From an uncultured bacterium (GTDB lineage Bacteria; Babelota; Babeliae; Babelales; Vermiphilaceae), in the NCBI GenBank assembly GCA_963701085.1, contig OY969561.1:128001-192000 (forward strand): a stretch of DNA of 64,000 nt. The letters are read 5' to 3'. The position numbers were made by a program, and so were the translations under genes. A model generated the notes under the pieces. That model was not told where the DNA came from. It saw only the letters and a program-made list of their open reading frames with translations, and did not search any database. Below, piece after piece: positions 5,695-60,463 of this stretch (position 1 is the first letter of the stretch; every line of letters starts with the position of its first letter).

Positions 5695-5739
5695 GCGCGC
5701 TCGTCCTGAACTTGTTGAAGGATATCTTCGAGTGCGCTC
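5695..5739. repeat. Palindromic repeat type A, partial (left arm plus core)
   Basis: GCGCGCTCGTCCTGAACTTGTTGAAGGATATCTTCGAGTGCGCTC matches the copy at 18269. Confidence 0.85.
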
Positions 5740-12705: not shown

Positions 12706-12773
12706 CGCGCTCATTCTGAACTTGTTGAAGAATTAAAGCGCGCTTAACCCTTCAACAAGTTCAGGGTGAGCGC
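12706..12773. repeat. Palindromic repeat type A (both arms)
   Basis: CGCGCTCATTCTGAACTTGTTGAAG...CCCTTCAACAAGTTCAGGGTGAGCGC. Confidence 0.9.
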
Positions 12774-12789
12774 ATTTGGAAAAGTGATA

Positions 12790-15876: not shown

Positions 15877-18216
15877 TTACAGTCGTTGTACAAATTGTGC
15901 AACGATTTTTTTTACACCAATTTTAAATTTAATCTCCAAATGTATGTCGCCCGATGCCTTTTCTTCAATATCTTGAATTGTGCCGATACCATATTTTGCA
16001 TGCTTTACTGGCTGATTTTTTTTCCACACTGATGTGCTTTGTGTTTTTATTTCTGGTATAGCAGCATGTTGTTTTTTTGCACCCTTCGATACACCCCTAC
16101 CGGGGCACTCAGGGCGAGCGGTTTTAGAGAATTTGTTTGTTGATATATCATTAGAAAAAGAGGGCCTGCCCGCCGAAGCCTCGGCGAAGGAGGGAATATA
16201 GATATCAGAGGTTTTTTGAAGTTTTTCACCGAACCAGTCCGCACAAAATTGATGCACTTGTGCGACGCTCCAGTATGAGCAATCTTCCAGTGGTATCAGA
16301 TGTGGCGGTATTTCATGTAAAAAGCGTGAAGGTAATTGATCAATCATTTGTCCGTATGAATAACGGTGTTTTGTGTAAGAAATAAGCAGATGTTCTTTGG
16401 CACGTGTTATTCCTACATAAAACAGTCTTCGTTCTTCTTCAAGTGCATCATTAGAATTAAGGGAGCGTGTTGTTGGGATGATGCCTTCTTCAACTCCTGG
16501 TAAAATCACTAAATCAAATTCTAAACCTTTTGCGGCATGGAGAGTCATAAGAGAAACCGCATGTGTATCTCTGTTTTGTTTGCTCATTTTGTCTTGCATG
16601 AGTGCAACTTCATCAAGAAAAGCGGTAATGGTTGTGATGTTATTTGTCTCGAAGTGTTTTACCGCGTCTAATAGTTCTTTAATGTTGTCTAAGCGCGCCT
16701 GTGCTTCTTGTGGTTCATCATTGTTTTTTATGTAGCTAAGATAGCTTGCACGCACAATAATTTCTTCAAGAGCTTTACTTGGTAGCGTTGTTGGTTCAAG
16801 GCCTTTGAGGATTCCAGCAAAGCTAATGAGAGTTTCTGTTTTTGCTCTGCCCAGGCTACCGTCTGCCATACATTGTTTAATAATATCGCGCCATGTTGCA
16901 AATGGTTCATTGGCCCATCGTGTGTAAAAGTCACTTTCGAATTTATCGCCCAGTCCGCGCGTAGGAACATTAATGATTCGGAAAAAAGAGGTTCTATCAA
17001 AGGGGTTGGCGATAATTTTAAGATACGCGAGTAAGTCTTTAATCTCTTTGCGTTCATAAAATTGAATACCACCAATAATGCGATAAGGAATGGAATCTTT
17101 GAGTAGTGCTTCTTCCAGTGCGCGTGATTGTGTATGTGTGCGGTATAATATGCCAACGTTATTGAGACCATATTTGGACTTTGCAACCAACAATAATTGT
17201 GCAATTGCGCGTGCTTCTTGATACTCAGTGAGGCAGAGAAGTTTTTGTATTCTGTTATTTCCTTTTTTTTCTGACCACAATGTTTTAGGTGTTCGGCAGC
17301 TGTTGTTTTGTATGGTGTGATTTGCGATGGTCAGTATCGGTTGTACAGAACGATAATTTTGTTCAATCGTGATGATGGTGGTGCCAGGGAAGACTTTTTT
17401 AAAGTTTGCCATGTTGGTCACTGTTGCACCTCGCCACGAATAAATTGACTGATCCTCATCGCCTACAGCGCAGACAGAATCTATTGCGAGAGTATCATCA
17501 ATTAGTGACATTGCTTTAAGGAGTTCATGCTGGACTACGTTGGTGTCTTGGTACTCATCAACCAAGATGTGGCGAACTTTTTCTTGAAACCTATTTTTTA
17601 TAACATTGTTTTTTTGAAATAGGCGCAATGTTTCTAGTAATAGGTCATCAAAATCAAGTGCTTTTGAGGCTTTTTTTTCTGTTTCATACGCATTAAAAAT
17701 ATCGGTAAGCATTGGGTGCGTTAAATGTTCCGTTGCTGGGTGTGATGGATCAACGGTATGATTTTTCATCTGAGAAATCTGATACGCCGTATTTTTTGGC
17801 GTGAACTGTTTTTGCAATCCATTGCGCTGTAAAATTGCCTGAAGCATTTTTTGTTGATCATCGCTATCTAAAATTGAAAAAAATGGATTGATCAGATGTT
17901 CCTGATGTTTTTTCAGTAATTGTACACAATAGGAATGGAATGTACCGATAAACGGAAGATCGGTACGATCGCCTAAAAAAGATGCAATGCGTTCACGCAT
18001 TTCAGTTGCAGCTTTGTTGGTAAAAGTAAGCGCCACGATTGATGATGCAGCAACACCTTTGTTTAACATTAAGTGGGTAATGCGCGCGGTGATAACACGT
18101 GTTTTTCCTGAGCCGGCGCCAGCTACAACAAGGACTGATCCTGCTTCATGGTGTACAGCTTGTTTTTGAGCATTGTTGAGATTGTTTTGTAGAAAATTAT
18201 TAAAAGAGTCGCGCAT
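15877..18216 (-). CDS. pcrA: UvrD/PcrA superfamily 1 DNA helicase with C-terminal Tudor-like domain
   Basis: AGAGSGKT, TFTNKAA, VDEYQD, QNYRS, TLHAAKGLEF, EERRLFYVGITRA; C-terminal V.H.KYG.GT. Confidence 0.95.
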   Translation of the reverse strand: MRDSFNNFLQNNLNNAQKQAVHHEAGSVLVVAGAGSGKTRVITARITHLMLNKGVAASSIVALTFTNKAATEMRERIASFLGDRTDLPFIGTFHSYCVQLLKKHQEHLINPFFSILDSDDQQKMLQAILQRNGLQKQFTPKNTAYQISQMKNHTVDPSHPATEHLTHPMLTDIFNAYETEKKASKALDFDDLLLETLRLFQKNNVIKNRFQEKVRHILVDEYQDTNVVQHELLKAMSLIDDTLAIDSVCAVGDEDQSIYSWRGATVTNMANFKKVFPGTTIITIEQNYRSVQPILTIANHTIQNNSCRTPKTLWSEKKGNNRIQKLLCLTEYQEARAIAQLLLVAKSKYGLNNVGILYRTHTQSRALEEALLKDSIPYRIIGGIQFYERKEIKDLLAYLKIIANPFDRTSFFRIINVPTRGLGDKFESDFYTRWANEPFATWRDIIKQCMADGSLGRAKTETLISFAGILKGLEPTTLPSKALEEIIVRASYLSYIKNNDEPQEAQARLDNIKELLDAVKHFETNNITTITAFLDEVALMQDKMSKQNRDTHAVSLMTLHAAKGLEFDLVILPGVEEGIIPTTRSLNSNDALEEERRLFYVGITRAKEHLLISYTKHRYSYGQMIDQLPSRFLHEIPPHLIPLEDCSYWSVAQVHQFCADWFGEKLQKTSDIYIPSFAEASAGRPSFSNDISTNKFSKTARPECPGRGVSKGAKKQHAAIPEIKTQSTSVWKKNQPVKHAKYGIGTIQDIEEKASGDIHLEIKFKIGVKKIVAQFVQRL
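16082..16121. repeat. Palindromic repeat type B inside pcrA (encodes ARPECPGRGVSKG)
   Basis: CCCTTCGATAC-ACCCCTACCGGGGC-ACTCAGGGCGAGCGG; near-identical to the intergenic copy at 29814. Confidence 0.9.
16165..16194. repeat. Palindromic repeat type C inside pcrA (encodes PSFAEASAGR)
   Basis: CCTGCCCGCCGAAGCCTCGGCGAAGGAGGG, 30 nt. Confidence 0.9.
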
Positions 18217-18268
18217 TATTTCTGCCTTGCTGCTTGTTTTACATAGTATGAATTATTTTTATCTTATT

Positions 18269-18344
18269 GCGCTCGTCCTGAACTTGTTGAAGGATGTCTT
18301 CGAGCGCTCGAGGAAAACCCTTCAACAGGTTCAGGGCGAGCGCG
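18269..18344. repeat. Palindromic repeat type A (complete)
   Basis: GCGCTCGTCCTGAACTTGTTGAAGG-core with CGAGCGCTCG-CCCTTCAACAGGTTCAGGGCGAGCGC. Confidence 0.95.
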
Positions 18345-21485: not shown

Positions 21486-22964
21486 TTATTGTTTGCTAAC
21501 AAGTTCTTGTAGTGCAATGCGCACATTTTCCATAACACCATCATAATCGAATGGTTTTTGTTGTTTAAAAATGCGTAATCCTGGATACCAGTATGAATCA
21601 GTGCGGTGGCAGATCCAGCGCCAATCAGCGGTAGCATACGGATGCAGTAGCCATACTTGTGTACCAAGTCCGCCAGCAAGATGTGTCATTGCGGTATCAA
21701 CCGTGATGACCAAATCAAGATTTTTAATCAGTGCTGCCGTATCCATAAACGGTCCTGATTGTTCATCAAAATTATCAAAAACGTGGAGCTGAAAATCTGA
21801 TGGTAATGTGCTTAGTTGTTCAACGCCATCATATTTTTGCAAATTATAAAAACTAACGCCATCAATTGTGCTCAGGGGTGCAAAGTTTTGTAGTGGAACT
21901 CCGCGGCGAGCAATAGGCAACTTTGATGGAATGTCATTATGGAGATCTGCTTGCCAACAGATGCCAACTTTAAAATTGGTGTCAGTGGCAAGTTGTTGTT
22001 TCCAATAGGCAACAAGTGCTGGGTCTGCAAAAAGATACGGAATATTGTGTGGTACGGTAGTATCATTATCGCCGAAAATTGCGGGTAAACTCATGAGTGT
22101 TGCATCAGCGTTATATTCTGGTAGCGCTGCGCCGCATGGGATCAGTTGGTCAATATAGTTGCAGCGAGAAAGCAGTGGTATGAGTGGTTTTTGACATGCA
22201 ACAATAACATCCGCACCCATATTTTTTAAACATTCTGCATAGCGTACAAAATTGAGTGTGTCACCAAGGCCACCTTCGGGGCGTAACAGAATTTTTTTAT
22301 ATGATACTGCATCGTCATGCAACAGTTGGCGTAATGCATCACCATTTTTCCCGCTTTGTGTAAGATAGCGGCTGTGCTGCTTCCATCCATTTTCAAAATC
22401 TCCCTTGGTAATGTAGGCAAAACCAAGACCAAGTTGTGCTGCTTGATATTCGGGATTTGTTTGAATGATCTGTTGATAGAGTTCAATTGCGGTATCGATA
22501 TCACCTATTGTTTTATAGGTGAATGCTTTGTTATAGCGTGCTGGTAATGCTTGTGGGTTGAGGGTGATGGTAGCATCAAATGCGGCGATCGCTTTTTCTC
22601 CTTGACCAATAGCAAGATAGCAACAACCAAGATTGAATAGTGCTGAGATGTTGTATGGTTCGTTATGTATTATTTCTTCATAGCAAGAAATTGCATCAGC
22701 GAACTGTTCATTTTTTTGATATTCCATTCCTGTTTCAAGGGATGGGATTGCGTGGATGTGGATGTGAATAAGCACAGTGTCGTTATTATTCTCGCGCTCG
22801 CCCTGAACTTGTTGAAGGGTTTCTTTGAGCGCTCGAAGACATCCTTCAAGCCGTCCTTCGCCGAGGCTTCGGAGGCCAGGCGGGTGTTTACTGCTGAGCA
22901 ATGTCGAAGCATCAGGACGAGCGGAGGAGAAAATACAAAAAAGTTTGATATTATTTTTTTTCAT
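21486..22964 (-). CDS. TPR-repeat glycosyltransferase family 9-like protein with repeat-derived N-terminal insert
   Basis: TPR repeats; EGGLGD..FVRY, KVGICWQ, F.DTAA....LDLVITVDT...HLAG.LG, DWRW, WYP..R.F.Q. Confidence 0.85.
   Translation of the reverse strand: MKKNNIKLFCIFSSARPDASTLLSSKHPPGLRSLGEGRLEGCLRALKETLQQVQGERENNNDTVLIHIHIHAIPSLETGMEYQKNEQFADAISCYEEIIHNEPYNISALFNLGCCYLAIGQGEKAIAAFDATITLNPQALPARYNKAFTYKTIGDIDTAIELYQQIIQTNPEYQAAQLGLGFAYITKGDFENGWKQHSRYLTQSGKNGDALRQLLHDDAVSYKKILLRPEGGLGDTLNFVRYAECLKNMGADVIVACQKPLIPLLSRCNYIDQLIPCGAALPEYNADATLMSLPAIFGDNDTTVPHNIPYLFADPALVAYWKQQLATDTNFKVGICWQADLHNDIPSKLPIARRGVPLQNFAPLSTIDGVSFYNLQKYDGVEQLSTLPSDFQLHVFDNFDEQSGPFMDTAALIKNLDLVITVDTAMTHLAGGLGTQVWLLHPYATADWRWICHRTDSYWYPGLRIFKQQKPFDYDGVMENVRIALQELVSKQ
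22793..22924. repeat. Composite repeat: type A with type C (22850-22880) and type D (22886-22911) nested in its right arm, inside a CDS
   Basis: TCCTTCAA|C insert|CGGGT|D insert|TCAGGACGAGCGG; about 132 nt; host ORF stays open. Confidence 0.9.
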
Positions 22965-24835
22965 TATTTTTCCCTATATGTTTTGCGAGTTCAACAGCAA
23001 CTTCTTTAATCATAGATTGCCAATCACCTGGCGTAGGTTGTTTGAATAGGCGAGTGATGTTTGGATACCATGGAGAATCATTGCGATCTATCATCCAGCG
23101 CCAATCAGCAGGGTTCGGGAGCATAATCCATGTTGGTGTGCCAAGCCCACTTGCAAGATGGCTGATTGATGTATCAACCGTGATAATAAGATCGAGATTT
23201 TTTATTACCGCAGCAGTATCCATAAAACGACCATTGCTCTGATCAAAATCACCATCAAACGTGATAATGCGCATGCCTTCTGGTAAATCCTTAAGTTGAT
23301 CGGTGCCGGTTGTTTTTTGCAGGCTGTAAACAGTTACGCCGGGAACGTTGCAAATAGGTGCAAACTCTTTTGGATGTACTGATTTTTGGGCAACGGTTGC
23401 GCGTAATAATGGTGTTGCATAGTTATCATTTCCTTGCCAACAGATGCCAATTTTAAAGTTTTTATCCGCGGATAATTTTTGTTTCCAATCAGCTACTAAT
23501 TTTTCATCAGCATAAAGGTATGGAATTTCACAGGGAACAGTATCAAGGCGTGTTTTCAGAACATACGGTAATGATAACAATGGTGAATGAACATCAAAGT
23601 GTGGGGGGGTGTCATCGAGTGAAATCACTTGATCGATATGTTTGCAACGTTTCATGAGGGTGACGAGTGGTTTTTGTACTGCAGCAATAACAATGCCATT
23701 TTTTTCTTTGATCAATTTCGCGTAACGAATAAATTGAAACGTATCGCCAAGCCCTTGTTCTGCGTGAATTAAAATTGTTTTGCCTTGTAAATCTGATCCA
23801 TCCCAGCGTGGTTCAGAGTAGCTGCGCAATGATCCTTGAGAAGGGCGGTCTGTAGCGCCATTCATATCCATGCCATCCGCGTTCAAAATCGCCGATTACA
23901 AGATACGCAAGGCCGCGACTAAAGAGTGCCTCTGCATGGTTGGGATTAAGCTCGAGTACTTTATTATAGTAAGGGAGTGCTTGATCCAAGTAACCAAATT
24001 TTTTGTAAGTGAATGCAATGTTGTATAAAATTGATGGATTGTTTGGTAGTTGACGGTTAAGATCTTGGTATATTGCGAGTGATTCATCAAGTCTGTTGAC
24101 GGTGTTATAAACATTAGCAAGTTCAAAGGTTAAGTTGATATGGCCTGGTTCAAGGGTAAGCCCATCAGTAATAATATTAAGTGCTTGATTAAAAAGATGT
24201 TTATCATTGTAAACGCGTGCAAGTAATAGACGCGTGTCAGGGTCATTGGGGTTAAGAATGAGTGCTTGTTTAAATGGTTCAATTGCATCGCCTGCTTGTT
24301 TGACATCCGTCATTACTTTGCCAATTTGAATGTATGCACGATAGTGATCTTTTTTATGCTGAATTGTTTTTTTATACGCATATAACGCCTCAGAATATTT
24401 TTTTGCATAATAGAGTGCTTGACCAAGATTGAAAAATATCTGTGCGCAGGTGGGATTTAATGCAAGTGCTTGTTTGTAAAATGCAATTGCTTCATCATAC
24501 TGTTCTGCGGTAAAAAGGCCATTTGCATGTTTGCTGAGTGCTTCAAAAGATTGGTAGTCGATATATGAGTGTGGTTGTGGTTTTTTGAGATAATTTTCTA
24601 TTGCGGTAAACGTAACTTGTTTGTTTGCATTGCAAAGGGATGTAGTGAGTAGTAGAAGGATTACCCTTCGATACATTCTCCTGTGGAGAACACTCAGGGC
24701 GAGCGGGAAGAGAAATATATTATTCTTAAGGATTGCGGTAAATTCTAGCCCGCTCGTCCTGAGTGCCACCGTAGGTGGTGTATCGAAGGATGGTGCGGAA
24801 GAAAAACGTAGAATAGTTTGTTTAGTTGTATTCAT
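22951..24835 (-). CDS. TPR-repeat glycosyltransferase family 9-like protein, split by a 1-nt frameshift near 23850
   Basis: TPR repeats to GWHGYEWRY (ORF 23813..24835), then WDGSDL.GK.I...EQGLGD (ORF 22951..23886). Confidence 0.85.
24664..24790. repeat. Two type B repeats in inverted orientation (24664-24707, 24749-24790) inside the 5' end of a CDS
   Basis: CCCTTCGATAC-ATTCTCC TGT GGAGAAC-ACTCAGGGCGAGCGGG and a reverse copy with a CCACC/GGTGG inner stem. Confidence 0.9.
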
Positions 24836-24915
24836 AAAAAACTCCTTTTTTGTGCGCTTCTATTTCTGCTTTGTTATACACAAAAAAGGAGTTTTAATCA
24901 ATTTGATTAATAGTC

Positions 24916-24944
24916 TTTACCCATTTGCCCATTTGTGGTATGAT
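24916..24944 (+). promoter_or_regulatory. Sigma70-like promoter of the TA pair with tandem CCCATTTG repeats
   Basis: TTTACC-17 nt-TATGAT with TG at the extended -10; CCCATTTG at 24920-24927 and 24928-24935. Confidence 0.55.
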
Positions 24945-24965
24945 GTGTTATAAGAGGTACCAATT

Positions 24966-25226
24966 ATGAAAAAAGAAACAAAATACGTAAAAATAGATTC
25001 CCGTAATCGTATTACCATACCAAAAAAGCTATCTGAGGGCATGTCTCATCTGTATGAGATATATGAGAAAGATGGGAAGATTATTCTTGAGCCAGTTTAT
25101 GAGGTTCCTAAAGAAGAAAAATGGTTGTTTGATCCTAAAAATAGGGCAATCGTTGATGAACTTAAGGCAGCACTCAAAGAAAAGGCTCACATAAGAATAG
25201 ATTTAAGCCAATTTGAAGAAGAATAA
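24966..25226 (+). CDS. AbrB/MazE/SpoVT-like antitoxin
   Basis: KIDSRNRITIPK...GKIILEP swapped-hairpin pattern; precedes a toxin-like gene. Confidence 0.8.
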   Translation: MKKETKYVKIDSRNRITIPKKLSEGMSHLYEIYEKDGKIILEPVYEVPKEEKWLFDPKNRAIVDELKAALKEKAHIRIDLSQFEEE

Positions 25227-25229
25227 TTA

Positions 25230-25526
25230 ATGACTTTTATATTGGAATATTCGGACACAGCGGCGAGACATTTTATGAGTCTCAAGGCTGATTCTTCGAA
25301 ACATAGAATTTTCAAGGACGTTGTTAAAGCTTTGCGGTACATGGAAAGTAATTTGCGGCATCCATCTTTAAACACTCATGAATACCATACTCTTAAAGGT
25401 CCTGGCGGTGAAAAGGTATTTGAGTCATATGCCCAACAAAAAACGCCTGGAGCATATCGAATATTTTGGCACTATGGTCCTGGTAAAAATATCATTTCAA
25501 TATTAGCAATTATACCTCATCCTTAA
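25230..25526 (+). CDS. RelE/ParE-superfamily toxin
   Basis: HPSL.TH, FESY, AYRIFWHY, I.AI.PHP; 3 nt downstream of the antitoxin. Confidence 0.75.
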   Translation: MTFILEYSDTAARHFMSLKADSSKHRIFKDVVKALRYMESNLRHPSLNTHEYHTLKGPGGEKVFESYAQQKTPGAYRIFWHYGPGKNIISILAIIPHP

Positions 25527-25573
25527 AATTTGATTACAAAACACGATCAAAGAAAAATCAAAACAATTGGCTA

Positions 25574-25621
25574 AAAAAAAGTGTTGTATAGTACTTGCAA
25601 GTACTATACAACACTTTTTTT
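25574..25621. terminator. Perfect 48-bp palindrome between convergent genes (bidirectional terminator)
   Basis: A7-GTGTTGTATAGTACTTG|CAAGTACTATACAACAC-T7. Confidence 0.7.
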
Positions 25622-25633
25622 AATAAAATCAAT

Positions 25634-26743
25634 TTACAGTTCGCTTGGCGTCCACTTATTAATATATTCAACAAGAGGCGCAATGCTTTTTTTTGTAAGG
25701 GATGAAACAACAACGTGTGGCTCGTATTGTTCAATGGCTCCCGCTAAAAGCGTTGTATCAATTTTGTCGGCCTTGTTAAATACATAGAGTATTGGTGTTT
25801 CAATATTGAGGTCTTCAAGGATGTCGTTAACAACATGGATATGGTTTCGCCAGCCTGTATCGGCAATATCAACAACATGTAATAATAAATCAGCATAATG
25901 TAATTCTGAAAGTGTTGATTTAAATGCGTCAATTAATCGTGGAGGGAGTTGTTGAATAAATCCAACGGTATCAGAAATGGTACCCTTTTTTGTGCCATGA
26001 ATAAACAGTGAGCGTGTTGTTGTATCAAGGGTTGCAAACAGTTTATCTTCCGCCAAAACATTACTGTTGGTCAGTATGTTTAATATGGTTGATTTACCCG
26101 CGTTGGTATATCCAATAAGACAGACATTGGGCTCATTGTTGTTCAAGCGTTGTTTGCGGCGTGTTTCGCGCGCACTGTGCATTTTTGCAAGATGTCTTTT
26201 GATTTGTAAAATACCATCTTCAATATGACGGGTTTCTTTTTCTTTTGCCGTTTCACCAAAGCCGCCACGAACACCAATGGCGCCACATTGTTGGCCAAAA
26301 TGGATACCGCGACCAGAAAGGCGTGATTTTTTATGCTGTAGTTGAGCGATGGCAACTTGGAGCTTACCTTCTGCGGTATGAGCTGATTTTTCGAAAATTT
26401 CTAAAATAAGTTCAGTTCTATCAAAAATGTTACAATCAAATAATTCTCCCAAATTGCCGGCTTGGCGTGAAGAAAGAGGTTCAGATATAATTACCTGCTC
26501 AATTCCGTTTTCATCGCAAAATAACTTAATTTCATCTCGTTTACCCTTGGTTAAAAAATAACCAGGATCAATGGTACGAATTTTTATATTAAGCTCTTCA
26601 GCATCACGGACACCATTGGTGCGTGCTAAGTTACGAAATTCTTCAAAATAGGATTCCGTATTAGCAACATGATTTTGTGGCGATTGTACGCCCAGAAGGA
26701 GGGTTTTTGGGTAGACTACCGTAGAGGTTGCTTGTCTTTTCAT
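25634..26743 (-). CDS. hflX: GTPase HflX
   Basis: DRTELILEIF, GYTNAGKST, LFATLDTT, DTVGFI, NKAD. Confidence 0.95.
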   Translation of the reverse strand: MKRQATSTVVYPKTLLLGVQSPQNHVANTESYFEEFRNLARTNGVRDAEELNIKIRTIDPGYFLTKGKRDEIKLFCDENGIEQVIISEPLSSRQAGNLGELFDCNIFDRTELILEIFEKSAHTAEGKLQVAIAQLQHKKSRLSGRGIHFGQQCGAIGVRGGFGETAKEKETRHIEDGILQIKRHLAKMHSARETRRKQRLNNNEPNVCLIGYTNAGKSTILNILTNSNVLAEDKLFATLDTTTRSLFIHGTKKGTISDTVGFIQQLPPRLIDAFKSTLSELHYADLLLHVVDIADTGWRNHIHVVNDILEDLNIETPILYVFNKADKIDTTLLAGAIEQYEPHVVVSSLTKKSIAPLVEYINKWTPSEL

Positions 26744-26809
26744 GATTTTTTGCCTTATTTAAAAAAAGTGCTGCGCACTTTTCATCGTATTAAGCTTGTA
26801 TGTGTTTCC

Positions 26810-26954
26810 CGCGCTCGCCCTGACCCTTCGGCAAGCTCAGGAGTAAACACCTGCCTTGAGAACTTGCAGTGCCTGCCGAAGCCTTGGCGAAGGCAGGTTG
26901 AAGGGTTTCTTAGAGCGCTCGAAGAGATCCTTCAACAGGTTCAGGACGAGCGCG
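26810..26954. repeat. Composite repeat: type A with type D (26824-26848) and a type C-containing insert (26854-26897) nested in its left arm
   Basis: CCCTGA|D|ACCTG|insert with C|TTGAAGGG-core-CCTTCAACAGGTTCAGGACGAGCGCG. Confidence 0.9.
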
Positions 26955-26981: not shown

Positions 26982-27727
26982 TATTCTTCTTTGTAATTAT
27001 AGCATAAGTATCAAAAAAATGTAGCGAGGGAACCATGAAAGTGGATTTGTTGATTAGCCAATATAGTTTTTAAGCAATTCTATAATTTTATTATAGTTGA
27101 CTATCGCTAACATAGTTAGGGCTAAGGCAATAATTGAAAATTTCATTGATTGCTGTTTTTGTGATTGTTGTTTCTGTTCCAATTTCTTTAAATATTCTCC
27201 AGGTGTTGCTTCATTTATTGATTGTCGGTAATGTTTCAAAAACTCATGATCTGTTAATTTTTGATTTTTCCAATAAGGTATATTGTCTAGAAGTGGAAGG
27301 AATGATTGATTTTTTTCTATAACGAGCATTTTAATGGCTTCCATATCCTCTATCATTGTACCACTCATTACTCTTATCTGTGTATAGTCAATAAAGTCAG
27401 ATAAAATGTCGTTTCTCATGGTAGGATATCCTTGAGTATTCATTAAGACTTTTGCACGATTTAAGCTACAACTAGTTTGATTTTTGATATATTTTACATA
27501 CTCAGTTATTTCCTTGGCATTCTTGGAATTTATTAGTTCATCAATATACTCATTGGTTGTTTTAAGGGAATCGTTTCTAATGCTCAGGTGCGGATTAAAT
27601 GGCTTGATTTGGTTTTCAGATGCTATAGTGATAAATCCTATATTTATTGTCAATAGAGCGATAAGATAATAATAGTTCATAAAATCCTCATTGTTAATTT
27701 TGATTATTCTTCTTTGTAATTATAGCA
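26982..27727. repeat. Perfect 23-bp direct repeat (26982-27004 and 27705-27727) flanking an orphan gene
   Basis: TATTCTTCTTTGTAATTATAGCA twice; its reverse complement begins TGCTATAAT (extended -10). Confidence 0.9.
27054..27680 (-). CDS. Secreted or membrane-anchored hypothetical protein
   Basis: N-terminal signal, C-terminal TM segment, GAGGA RBS. Confidence 0.7.
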   Translation of the reverse strand: MNYYYLIALLTINIGFITIASENQIKPFNPHLSIRNDSLKTTNEYIDELINSKNAKEITEYVKYIKNQTSCSLNRAKVLMNTQGYPTMRNDILSDFIDYTQIRVMSGTMIEDMEAIKMLVIEKNQSFLPLLDNIPYWKNQKLTDHEFLKHYRQSINEATPGEYLKKLEQKQQSQKQQSMKFSIIALALTMLAIVNYNKIIELLKNYIG

Positions 27728-33345: not shown

Positions 33346-34800
33346 TTACTCAGCAATTTTGTGGGCGATAAGATGCATTTTTCCTGCTCCAAGGAATAAA
33401 ATAAGGTCATTTTTGGCGGCAGATCGTTCTATTGCCTGTTTTATTTGCGTGAAATCATCTTCAAATGGGACATATTGAATAATAAAGGGGGGGTTGAGGG
33501 CTGTCAGTTCTTGTACAAACCGTTCGCTGGTGATTGTTGGGATGGGATACTCTCCGGCGGAGTAAATATCGGTAAAAATGAGGGTGTCGATAGCGCTTGT
33601 GGCAAAGGTGGTGAGAAAATCATTCCATAATTTTTGGGTACGAGTGTAGCGGTGTGGCTGAAATACCACGATGAGTTTATTATGTGCTCGTTTACGAGCG
33701 ACCTTCAGTGTATATTCAATTTCTTTTGGATGATGACCATAGTCATCAAAGATTTCAGCGCCTTTGTAGGTGCCATGGAATGAAAATCGTCGCTCAACAC
33801 CACCAAAAGTGGCTAAGCTCTTTGCAATTATTTCAAAAGAGATTTCAAGTTCTTGCGCAAGTGCAATTGCTGCTAATGCATTATAAACGTTATGCAAGCC
33901 GGGCATTGGTAGCATGATAGTGCCAAGCGGGGTGAGATTATTTTTTGTGTGTACGGTAAACAGTGAGTGATCAGCGTTGAGAATGATATCCTGTGCATAA
34001 AAATCTGCGTGCCTGTCCGCCCCTTCGACGGAGCTCAGGATAAACTCCGCTTTAGCGAAGGAGGATTCTATGCCGTATGATATTGTTTTAACATGGTCAA
34101 GGGGCATGAGCGAGCGTATGTTTTCGTCATCAATACATACAATTGCTTTGCCATCAACAGGAAGATTGTTAAGGAATTGTTTAAAACATTGTTTGATATC
34201 ATCTAAGTCAGTGTATGTTTCCAGGTGTTCCAAATCAATATTGGTGATGACTGCAAGCGTTGCATGTAGTTGTAAAAAAGAGCGATCACTTTCATCAGCT
34301 TCAGCGACCAAAAAATCACCTTTGCCCATGCGAGCGTTAGATGAAAGATTTTTTAATTGTCCGCCAATGACAACAGTCGGATCCATTTTTGCTTCAATTA
34401 AGATGTGGGAGATGAGAGAGGTTGTTGTTGTTTTTCCATGCGATCCAGCAATTGCTATGCTATATTTTGTGCGCATAAGTTCCGCGAGCATGCATGCGCG
34501 GGAAATTGTTGGAATGCCACGCGCTTGAGCTTGTGCAATTTCCGCCGTTACTGCCGGAATTGTGGTGGCATACATGGGGATGTAGACAAGGGTATCAATG
34601 GTTGCATCATTACACTCAATTGAGTTGTTGCCTTTATATACCGTGCAATCGAGACTTCTCAGCTGCGCAACGGTATCCTGCTCAGTATCAGGATCACATC
34701 CAGAAATGGTGTAACCACTTTGCTTTAAGATGGTGGCTATACCACTCATTCCTATTCCGCCAATACCAACAAAATGAATGTGTGATTTTTTTGTATACAT
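33346..34800 (-). CDS. murC: UDP-N-acetylmuramate--L-alanine ligase with 18-aa repeat-derived insert
   Basis: IHFVGIGGIGMSG, GSHGKTTT, EADESD.SF, DDYGHHP.E, FQPHRYTRT. Confidence 0.95.
   Translation of the reverse strand: MYTKKSHIHFVGIGGIGMSGIATILKQSGYTISGCDPDTEQDTVAQLRSLDCTVYKGNNSIECNDATIDTLVYIPMYATTIPAVTAEIAQAQARGIPTISRACMLAELMRTKYSIAIAGSHGKTTTTSLISHILIEAKMDPTVVIGGQLKNLSSNARMGKGDFLVAEADESDRSFLQLHATLAVITNIDLEHLETYTDLDDIKQCFKQFLNNLPVDGKAIVCIDDENIRSLMPLDHVKTISYGIESSFAKAEFILSSVEGADRHADFYAQDIILNADHSLFTVHTKNNLTPLGTIMLPMPGLHNVYNALAAIALAQELEISFEIIAKSLATFGGVERRFSFHGTYKGAEIFDDYGHHPKEIEYTLKVARKRAHNKLIVVFQPHRYTRTQKLWNDFLTTFATSAIDTLIFTDIYSAGEYPIPTITSERFVQELTALNPPFIIQYVPFEDDFTQIKQAIERSAAKNDLILFLGAGKMHLIAHKIAE
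34012..34065. repeat. Type C repeat with a nested type D repeat, in frame in murC
   Basis: CCTGTCCGCC[CCTTCGACGGAGCTCAGGATAAACTCC]GCTTTAGCGAAGGAGGA = 54 nt = SSFAKAEFILSSVEGADR. Confidence 0.9.
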
Positions 34801-34888
34801 AGAAGTGCTTTGCATCTAAAATATGTTAATCTATTCATTAATTTATATGTTTTTAAAAACACTGCAACGTGAGATGGAGATGCTATTT

Positions 34889-56043: not shown

Positions 56044-56401
56044 ATGGCTATACATAAAAAAGATCGAATTACGCGCAGCTCGCAGAGCATTGCGTGTTCG
56101 CGCAAAAGTGAAACGTTATGGTATGCCGCCACGCGTTTCAGTTTTTAGAAGTTTGAAGCATATGTATGCTCAGATTATTGATGATATGAATCAACATACT
56201 ATTGCTTCATGTTCTTCACTTGAAATGGACAATGTGACAGGTGATAAGAGTGCAATGGCACATGCAATTGGTCTTGAGCTTGCAAAGCGTGCAAAGGCAA
56301 AAGGTGTTGATGCGGTTGTGTTTGATAGAGGTCGCTTTAAATTTCATGGTAGGGTGAAAGCCCTCGCTGACGGCTTGCGTGAAGGTACATTGAAGTTTTA
56401 G
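56044..56401 (+). CDS. rplR: 50S ribosomal protein L18, apparent 5' frameshift
   Basis: PR.SVFRS.KH.YAQII, VVFDRG...HGRV.ALA. Confidence 0.9.
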
Positions 56402-60242: not shown

Positions 60243-60463
60243 AGCAAAAAGAAGAAGTTATACGAGTCGATGGAGTTGTGAAAGAAACATTGCCTAATGC
60301 AATGTTTCGAGTAGAAATTGAAGGCGGACATGTTGTGTTAGGGCACGTGTCAGGTAAGATGCGGATGCATTATATTCGTATTTTACCAGGTGATAGAGTT
60401 GCGTTAGAATTGTCTCCGTACGATCTAACACGTGGAAGAATTGTATTGCGATACAAGGATTAA
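60239..60463 (+). CDS. infA: Translation initiation factor IF-1
   Basis: [31 protein letters not shown]. Confidence 0.97.

Follow-up and report, generated by a model that had tools for sequence, protein, structure and literature searches.

How do two copies of a palindromic repeat come to carry the same kinds of nested units, at the same two positions, in opposite arms? We address this question for a 64,000-nucleotide stretch of DNA from an uncultured bacterium of the family Vermiphilaceae (hereafter the window), comprising bases 128001-192000 of a single 1,198,634-bp contig (37% G+C). Two copies of a palindrome designated type A, one starting at 22793 (copy 1) and the other at 26810 (copy 2), are each interrupted in one arm by two smaller units, D and C. 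A preliminary description of the window had attributed this arrangement either to insertion targeted to precise positions of sister hairpins or to exchange of arms by recombination. The reading that we favor, with some reserve, is that type A palindromes are derivatives, lacking an open reading frame (ORF), of units that combine a GIY-YIG nuclease gene with hairpins, and that an old arm containing D and C was copied as a unit while its modules were reshuffled.

Two composite palindromes carry D and C units in opposite arms

The two copies are composed as follows.

Copy 1, total span 22793-22924
22793-22818, + strand: intact left arm, a hairpin with terminus CGCGCTCG, stem CCC/GGG and loop TGAACTTGTTGAA (from sequence and stem covariation)
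22819-22842, + strand: core, near-palindromic around GAGCGCTC (core pattern match)
22843-22849, + strand: right arm, inner end CCTTCAA (from sequence)
22850-22880, - strand: C unit, 31 nt, hairpin with loop GAAGCCTCGGCGAA (from sequence and loop search)
22881-22885, - strand: spacer ACCCG (CGGGT on the + strand), common to 9 other composite arms and found in 0 of 116 intact arms
22886-22911, - strand: D unit, 26 nt, type D2, stem TGC/GCA, a reversed arm hairpin with tail GTAAAC (from sequence)
22912-22924, + strand: right terminus TCAGGACGAGCGG (from sequence)

Copy 2, total span 26810-26954
26810-26823, + strand: left terminus CGCGCTCGCCCTGA (terminus search)
26824-26848, + strand: D unit, 25 nt, type D1, stem CCC/GGA (from sequence)
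26849-26853, + strand: spacer ACCTG (from sequence)
26854-26897, + strand: C-containing piece, 44 nt, with the C hairpin proper at 26872-26897 (from sequence)
26898-26904, + strand: left arm, inner end TTGAAGG (from sequence)
26905-26928, + strand: core (core pattern match)
26929-26954, + strand: intact right arm (from sequence)

In both palindromes, the D unit follows CCTGA and the C unit follows ACCYG. Sequence and coordinates bear out the layouts that had been proposed: the left arm of copy 2 reads CCTGA, D (25 nt), ACCTG, a C-containing piece (44 nt) and TTGAAGG, and the right arm of copy 1, reverse-complemented, reads CCTGA, D (26 nt), ACCCG, C (31 nt) and TTGAAGG. The C hairpin of copy 2 is preceded by a 16-nt piece, common to the composites of the sister genomes G002, G005 and G007, plus 2 nt. 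Two further claims held as well. The core has the same orientation in both copies, matching the core pattern on the + strand with 0 mismatches in each, and the composite arm is accordingly the left one in copy 2 and the right one in copy 1. Moreover, the inserts are unlike between copies, as the D units differ and the C units differ in sequence.

Three matches to the core pattern were found in the window versus 0.00 expected (100 shuffles), and the 14-nt terminus (up to 2 mismatches) was found 12 times versus 0.09 expected in shuffled sequence. Counts so far above those of shuffles mark the composite feature as genuine, well outside what chance would give. Both palindromes are intergenic. Copy 1 is situated upstream of a TPR-containing ORF that probably starts downstream of the element, and copy 2 is flanked by hflX on one side and, on the other, by an additional ORF that precedes ffh.

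The nested units resemble the arm hairpin

C is a hairpin related to that of the arm, its loop GAAGCCTYGGCGAA resembling the arm loop. This conserved 14-nt loop has 117 matches in the genome, 77 of them within a stem of at least 3 bp, and the stems covary freely. C hairpins stand alone in many places, adjoin the 3' ends of tRNA genes, and occupy the loops of other hairpins. By manual reading, nine nested copies sit at CGA^AG in loops of C-type hairpins or of a third unit, E, and six follow CCTG in A-type arms (an automatic context test, which is strict, labels most nested copies solo); one more lies within a D loop. Triple nesting also occurs: C lies in E in A, and a single arm holds both C in C and C in D.

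Examples of C-type hairpins at tRNA 3' ends are found at contig positions (G000:C1) 56334-56369, 60318-60347, 100373-100404 and 242805-242824. The tRNA's terminal bases are complementary to one of the two halves of the C stem, and so part of the stem seems to derive from neighboring sequence. The E unit is about 63 nt long, includes GGGGTCCCC, and is found both alone and within type A arms (219596-219660, 124479, 522767, 615121, 801602 and 951866 of the same contig); at 219596, a C hairpin lies inside E and E inside an A arm.

D, for its part, is the arm hairpin in reverse orientation followed by a tail, GTAAAC. Its stems covary (CCC/GGA, TGC/GCA and TAC/GTA). In an unbiased genome search, all 19 D units with a GTRARC tail directly follow the terminus. 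A second class of D, with the tail ATAAAC, has 7 copies, each inside a C-type hairpin. We also observed a block of terminus, D and a 19-nt spacer preceding a complete arm, which yields a direct repeat of the 13-nt terminus; it occurs at 1156133-1156257 of the contig, where it is in tandem, at 210513, 211004, 762283 and 970658, and in three loci of the sister genome G010 (L161-L163).

Type A palindromes are head-to-head dimers of one conserved hairpin

In the type A palindrome, one conserved hairpin is present twice, head to head; this hairpin consists of CGCTCG, a covarying stem of 3-5 bp and a 13-nt loop, TGARCYTGTYGAA. The stems around 227 matches to this loop in the genome covary (TCC/GGA, 77; CCC/GGG, 47; TCC/GGG, 10; TAC/GTA, 8; and, more rarely, TTC/GAA, 7; TGG/CCA, 3; TGC/GCA, 3), and within the loop, the bases at positions 4 and 10 are complementary (A with T, or G with C) in all 116 intact arms. 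It is this covariation of stem and loop that identifies the plain element as two hairpin halves joined head to head. Plain dimers of half-elements, 29 in all, comprise the combinations TT (7), CT (19) and CC (3), such that every combination of halves is present.

The terminus GCTCGYCCTGA (up to 1 mismatch) has 236 sites in the genome, 128 of which are solo. The others face inward in 54 pairs, with members less than 450 bp apart: 31 pairs span 67-72 bp (plain type A), 16 span 125-139 bp (composite type A copies, and type B), 4 span 386-431 bp and 3 are below 67 bp. Type B arms share the terminus and carry a variable small hairpin within the loop. A looser census of the genome counted 127 A arms that are intact, 58 arms of type B, 11 arms with D+C and at least 6 others that bear D; the type B arms hold many different small hairpins at one fixed position of the loop.

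Members of the family in the window, besides the two composites, include the following.

18268-18344: plain 70-bp type A palindrome, used as a comparison copy (core search; single-stranded DNA fold)
12706-12774: type A palindrome with the other core type, TTAAAGCGCGC (terminus and core reading)
5696-5732, + strand: solo half-element, one arm and half a core (terminus reading)
24663-24707, - strand: type B arm, with the same terminus and a variable small hairpin within the loop (arm census)
24749-24791, + strand: type B arm (arm census)

As single-stranded DNA (ssDNA), the plain copy at 18268-18344 has a predicted folding energy of -31.4 kcal/mol (z = -8.3), and copy 2 one of about -39 to -40 kcal/mol (z = -5.3). 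With D and C placed inside the arm loop, a single-stranded composite arm would be a branched hairpin; in the predicted folds, the outer and inner stems are kept and D and C form side branches. At the gathering score, no Rfam family matches the window, and further Rfam searches gave only hits to unrelated families (miRNA, snoRNA, sRNA and similar), below threshold. A candidate motif name, GEBRO, is absent from the papers that a literature search listed.

Many type A copies, including those near contig positions 210513, 461271, 762283 and 865612, are conserved for a further 30-35 nt or so outside the terminus, for example as tagaacctatccctcaactaattttttcct. The repeated unit may therefore exceed the palindrome.

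GIY-YIG nuclease genes lie between the arms

The four copies of 386-431 bp each contain one ORF between the arms, encoding a protein of 96-111 amino acids whose sole Pfam domain is GIY-YIG (E values of 6.6e-18 and 1.6e-17). All four full-length GIY-YIG ORFs of this family in the 1.2-Mb genome are bracketed by arms in this way. The nearest solved structures are UPF0213 proteins (1zg2 and 1ywl), and NCBIfam has no family for the protein. A tblastn search combined with a Pfam scan returned six GIY-YIG matches in the genome, with no close copy beyond the four bracketed ORFs: the fifth is divergent and the sixth lies within a 348-amino-acid frame. The divergent fifth frame (84 amino acids; contig positions 843882-844097, - strand) adjoins two tRNA genes and an arm that has D and lacks C.

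A 128-bp copy of the element retains both ends of the ORF region, from which the 70-bp palindromes are best read as internal-deletion derivatives. By this comparison of lengths and ends, the 70-bp type A forms would be ORF-less derivatives of GIY-YIG-bearing elements. The Y1 transposase of RAYT and IS200 elements (PF01797) has 0 matches in the genome, which is 92.6% complete in one contig; other transposase families were not searched. The control search with PF01797 was positive in 6 of 14 known genomes.

The composite arm probably descends from one ancestor, with exchange of its parts

The layout of terminus, D, spacer, C and T[TC]GAAGG recurs in 13 arms of the genome and in 17 arms, chosen by BLAST similarity to copy 2, from the sister genomes G002, G005, G007 and G008. 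These D+C arms share order, orientation and junctions across the genome and the sister species; G010, the fifth sister species sampled, has D-bearing arms without C. The piece preceding the C stem repeats the 5' half of that stem, and the gap between the two half-stem copies forms a graded deletion series: 16 nt in G002, G005, G007 and copy 2, 7-15 nt in G008, and 2-3 nt in the remaining arms of the genome, including copy 1. In addition, 10 of the 11 composite type A arms of the TTGAA class have ACCCG as their spacer, whose letters none of the 116 intact arms shows. The shared layout, the deletion series and the spacer together suggest that copy 1, with type D2 and a short C, and copy 2, with type D1 and a long C, are diverged members of one old lineage.

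Other features of the composite arms point to exchange between copies. The two types of D (D1 and D2) are combined in the genome with the two types of C (Ca and Cb) in all four possible ways, in 4, 2, 4 and 2 arms; either half-core type, as well as the TTAAAGCGC core, is found joined to a composite arm; and in one element of G002, both arms are composite. All module combinations and a doubly composite element are what exchange between copies would produce, and two targeted insertions are then unneeded. Exchange together with descent would also allow the composite arm to occupy either side of the core. Of the two processes initially put forward for this pair, we thus favor arm exchange, combined with common descent, and regard targeted insertion as less likely. 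The simple alternative, in which all composites descend from one ancestral arm and other junctions are random, finds support in its first half and fails in its second, because C recurs at CGA^AG (nine times) and after CCTG (six times). Targeted nesting at recurring loop sites does, therefore, exist in the genome, although it is needless for explaining this pair.

Several observations weigh against descent with exchange or against the wider reading of which it is a part. The spacer of copy 2, ACCTG, consists of the intact arm's own letters, and its D and C are clearly unlike those of copy 1, which would fit separate insertions too. As C-type hairpins nest repeatedly at precise sites, a second, independent insertion of C is possible. 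Because the sister-species arms were picked by their similarity to copy 2, they do not show how frequent other layouts are. No gene-conversion tract or recombination junction was directly seen, and no consistent target-site duplication was found at the copies read, where empty and filled sites were not aligned base by base. The orientation of C shows no replichore bias (n = 42, Fisher p = 0.75) and so lends no support to a lagging-strand ssDNA route. The predicted ssDNA fold of copy 1 barely beats shuffled sequence (z of about -1.6). Lastly, the pattern of SRM, the hairpin of the Ssn family of GIY-YIG nucleases discussed below (HGTCWYN(0-2)YYVSBRHN(0-5)WNVSBRGN(0-2)RNCYNB), has 0 sites in the genome, versus 0-4 in 5 shuffles.

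A first alternative is that D and C were each inserted independently, in fixed orientation and at the same two positions, by a nuclease or transposase that targets loops. The set loop sites at which C-type hairpins recur speak for this; both insert positions of the arm follow CCTG, the inserts of the two copies are unlike in sequence and length, and entry of hairpin units into unique DNA is seen in murC and in a helicase linker (see below). We nevertheless consider this account unlikely. D with the GTRARC tail is never found away from the terminus (19 of 19); the same composite layout, with its deletion series, is present in sister species; the derived spacer unites 10 composite arms of both D types to the exclusion of all 116 intact arms; and the nesting in murC belongs to a composite family of seven copies, and so shows composites to spread as units.

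Still less probable, in our judgment, is that the branches are not inserts at all and are instead structural expansions that arose in place, for example through slippage or local duplication, as the loop of a structured arm grew and shrank while selection favored a branched ssDNA or RNA fold. The duplication of the 5' half of the C stem in the piece before it, with covarying letters (CCTGCC..CCTGCC, CCCGC..CCCGC and CCCAAC..CCCAAC), speaks for such a process, as do the varied small hairpins at one fixed loop position of the 58 type B arms and the predicted folds, in which D and C branch from retained stems. Set against this are the C hairpins with the same conserved loop that stand alone at many unrelated places (77 of 117 with stems of at least 3 bp) and the nature of D, which reproduces the whole arm hairpin in reverse, a product not made by local slippage. 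The lack of an Rfam match and a fold of copy 1 hardly above that of shuffled sequence also argue against it.

Chance resemblance or an assembly artifact of a repeat-rich genome is scarcely credible, for although the genome apparently represents an uncultured lineage assembled from a metagenome, and although the contigs of four public short-read sequencing runs are of low depth and break at repeats (their joints reflecting cross-mapping between copies), core and terminus counts far exceed those of shuffles and the same composite layouts appear in independent assemblies of five other species.

Composite units have entered genes and spacers in this lineage

Three features of the window lie in frame within protein-coding genes.

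34015-34065, - strand: 51-nt composite hairpin unit, in frame in murC (one of 7 genome copies; absent in 9 of 9 orthologues)
16082-16119, - strand: type B arm within a UvrD-like helicase gene, in frame (frame reading, orthologue comparison)
16165-16194, + strand: solo C hairpin, in frame in the same helicase gene (loop search, frame reading)

The murC insert lies within a Mur ligase ORF (33346-34815) and adds 17 amino acids. It consists of a D-like unit, with the tail ATAAAC, between the halves of a C-type hairpin. A nesting of D inside C had been noted here beforehand, and the nesting is present; it is not a unique event, since the genome has seven copies of this composite. As one of those seven, the murC insert shows that a nested unit moved whole into unique coding DNA. 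None of the 9 orthologues found in the genus contains the insert (G002, which is 73% complete, gave no match), and by this comparison the unit entered murC in frame in this lineage only.

The spacer between hflX and ffh offers a second instance. The relevant side of the locus could be read in 5 of 10 orthologous loci (L125, L128, L129, L132 and L134): no element occupies the site in G003, G004, G005 or G008, and in G010 one of type B is present. In the genome studied here, a 208-amino-acid ORF (27054-27680, - strand) also lies between hflX and ffh, genes that are direct neighbors in the five sister genomes read. Given this adjacency, both the ORF and copy 2 appear to be lineage-specific additions.

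In the helicase ORF (15877-18216, - strand), the type B arm and the C hairpin lie in the C-terminal linker. This linker varies among 11 genomes, and in some species it contains other hairpin-derived peptide repeats.

A proposed nuclease-driven model for hairpin mobility

We propose that type A palindromes may be ORF-less forms, akin to MITEs (miniature transposable elements with inverted repeats), of mobile units in which a GIY-YIG gene is set between two inverted hairpin copies. The D+C arm would have arisen before the species of the genus split and have been copied as a unit ever since. The elements would behave as dimers of exchangeable halves, with D and C modules reshuffled between copies, most likely via gene conversion or recombination among the many copies present. 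Half exchange and module reshuffling could then leave diverged versions of the composite arm on opposite sides of the core, as seen at 22793 and 26810.

As to what moves the hairpins, the genome has no Y1 transposase, which makes the repeat-bracketed GIY-YIG gene the obvious candidate. An analogy is provided by Ssn, a group of single-domain GIY-YIG nucleases (CDD cd10448; Chenal et al. 2025, PMC11893778; this and the other papers compared here were available to us in part, and our statements refer to the accessible text). Ssn binds its flanking hairpin, NTS/SRM, as ssDNA in one orientation and cuts a few bases upstream (PMC11893778); the activity that characterizes the system is site-specific cutting of ssDNA beside the hairpin and none of dsDNA or RNA. 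By analogy, we infer that the resident nuclease may recognize the arm hairpin as ssDNA and drive its movement, with single-stranded loops as the presumed preferred landing sites. Every insert position that we mapped falls within a loop, the single-stranded portion of a hairpin once extruded, and this would fit a cut directed to ssDNA with subsequent copying from another repeat. The broader proposition, that Ssn-like GIY-YIG nucleases move hairpins as ssDNA into the loops of sister hairpins and occasionally, in frame, into genes, is one that we offer tentatively, as a possibility on the doubtful side.

If true, it would describe mobility that requires only a nuclease and takes hairpins into hairpins, explaining Russian-doll repeats and possibly also orphan REP-like repeats and repeats similar to Rickettsia palindromic elements (RPEs) that lack a known transposase. 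The present system could help to settle what mobilizes such REP-like repeats, and to explain the palindromic repeats found inside essential proteins of intracellular bacteria. For a repeat family that propagates in composite form, there is little out of the ordinary in what the composites themselves mean; the nested ones are useful in marking the loop positions that accept inserts. Movement can moreover be dated, as the murC insert is lineage-specific and the hflX-ffh site is filled here and empty in the four sister genomes read without an element.

The hairpin and its nuclease are distributed across phyla

A 17-nt arm core was found in 9 of 10 other genomes of the genus and in 2 of 14 from other genera of the family; all 16 genomes from other families of the order lacked it, and a reversed control gave 0 throughout. 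More widely, at least 123 stretches from many phyla contain an exact copy of a 23-nt arm; their sources include Sphingomonadales, Dehalococcoidia, Burkholderiales, Acidobacteriota, Planctomycetes, Cyanobacteria and a Babeliales metagenome-assembled genome.

The nuclease has 967 homologues (E of 1e-3 or less), the closest of which are named Candidatus Babeliales; others, 55-64% identical, come from several phyla. Many of them have a C-terminal tail that is a translation of the arm. In one homologue from Pseudomonadota (P0060), a long tail of about five tandem arm translations suggests, from the protein sequence, that arrays of hairpins may directly follow the gene. The four best GIY-YIG matches in three genomes of two other phyla (Sphingomonadaceae and Dehalococcoidia) are all bracketed by the arm hairpin. 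Three weaker homologues from Dehalococcoidia and Sphingomonadaceae (L144, L145 and L146) are bracketed by other inverted hairpins, and the repeats on both sides of L144 fit the published SRM pattern.

Among 71 metagenome loci, namely those with at least 120 nt of flank on both sides, a bracketing hairpin is present on both sides of the gene in 32, upstream only in 10, downstream only in 15 and on neither side in 14. Hairpins in the opposite orientation are also common near these genes (19 and 27 loci), as expected if ORF-less dimers adjoin them. In 96 partner hairpins of cross-phylum loci, which the search pattern had left free, 92.9% of positions are paired versus 72.4% in shuffled sets, and 104 double-sided changes are seen versus 36.6; none of 500 shuffles attains these figures, and pairing in slid controls is 31-52%.

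Comparison with known systems

Our literature search on GIY-YIG genes associated with palindromic or MITE-like repeats returned a single paper on bacteria, that on Ssn (PMC11893778). It reports SRM in 71% of homologue regions and on both sides in 42%, and its authors note that the layout of repeat, gene and repeat resembles an insertion sequence, the accessible text not demonstrating mobility of the repeats. The likeness to our elements is considerable. Both systems have a single-domain GIY-YIG protein of about 95 amino acids (about 94 for Ssn, 96-111 here), a gene bracketed by inverted hairpin repeats of which the genome holds many ORF-less copies, and an association that extends across phyla. 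The protein described here is 35% identical over 79 amino acids (E = 1e-11) to a homologue flanked by SRM on both sides. The hairpins, however, differ: ours has a stem of 3-5 bp and a 13-nt loop, whereas SRM has a long stem and a short loop. Nesting, palindromic 70-bp dimers and in-frame insertions into genes are present here and are not described in the accessible part of that paper. None of the 10 of its supplementary files that were searched contains the sequences TGTCGAAGG, CCTTCGACA or TTCGACAAGCTCA, or either of the names Babeliales and Dependentiae. The link between GIY-YIG genes and one type of hairpin, and the cutting of ssDNA by the enzyme, were thus already published in 2025 (PMC11893778); new here are a second, pan-bacterial hairpin type tied to a sister group of Ssn nucleases, the extensive nesting and the dated in-frame insertions.

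REP/REPIN-RAYT systems and BIMEs likewise comprise short hairpin repeats, mostly as head-to-head dimers, single or in mosaics, and these are thought to be moved by a nuclease that recognizes the hairpin as ssDNA. Unlike them, our repeats have no GTAG tag and no Y1 transposase, and a GIY-YIG gene lies inside the repeat pair in four copies. For repeats of the same kind, Di Nocera et al. (2013, PMC3733652) used the name CGTC REPs and stated that no dedicated transposase accompanies them. These too are widespread small palindromes, mostly head-to-head dimers and at times within genes, and one distant GIY-YIG homologue (L144) is flanked by such repeats. They differ in having a stem of 8-9 bp, a loop of 4-5 nt and a CCA tail (PMC3733652), none of which is found in our arm hairpin. 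RPEs (cited in PMC3733652) resemble the present repeats as palindromes of obligate intracellular bacteria that lie in frame within protein genes. The elements studied here, for their part, include copies with a nuclease gene; to our knowledge, none is known for RPEs.

A last comparison is with bacterial MITEs, such as QMITE1/2 of Coxiella, which are short, non-autonomous copies with inverted ends that derive from a longer coding element (PMC5896051). We considered the Coxiella elements themselves and rejected them as a match on their description, because their sizes, direct repeats and GTAG palindrome do not fit (PMC5896051). Classical MITEs differ further from our elements, which have no transposase of a known insertion sequence family and, at the copies read, no consistent target duplication, and whose ends are covarying structured hairpins. 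The relationship that defines a MITE is nevertheless found here, as the same arms occur on ORF-bearing copies of 386-394 bp and on copies of 67-72 bp, with a 128-bp intermediate between them.

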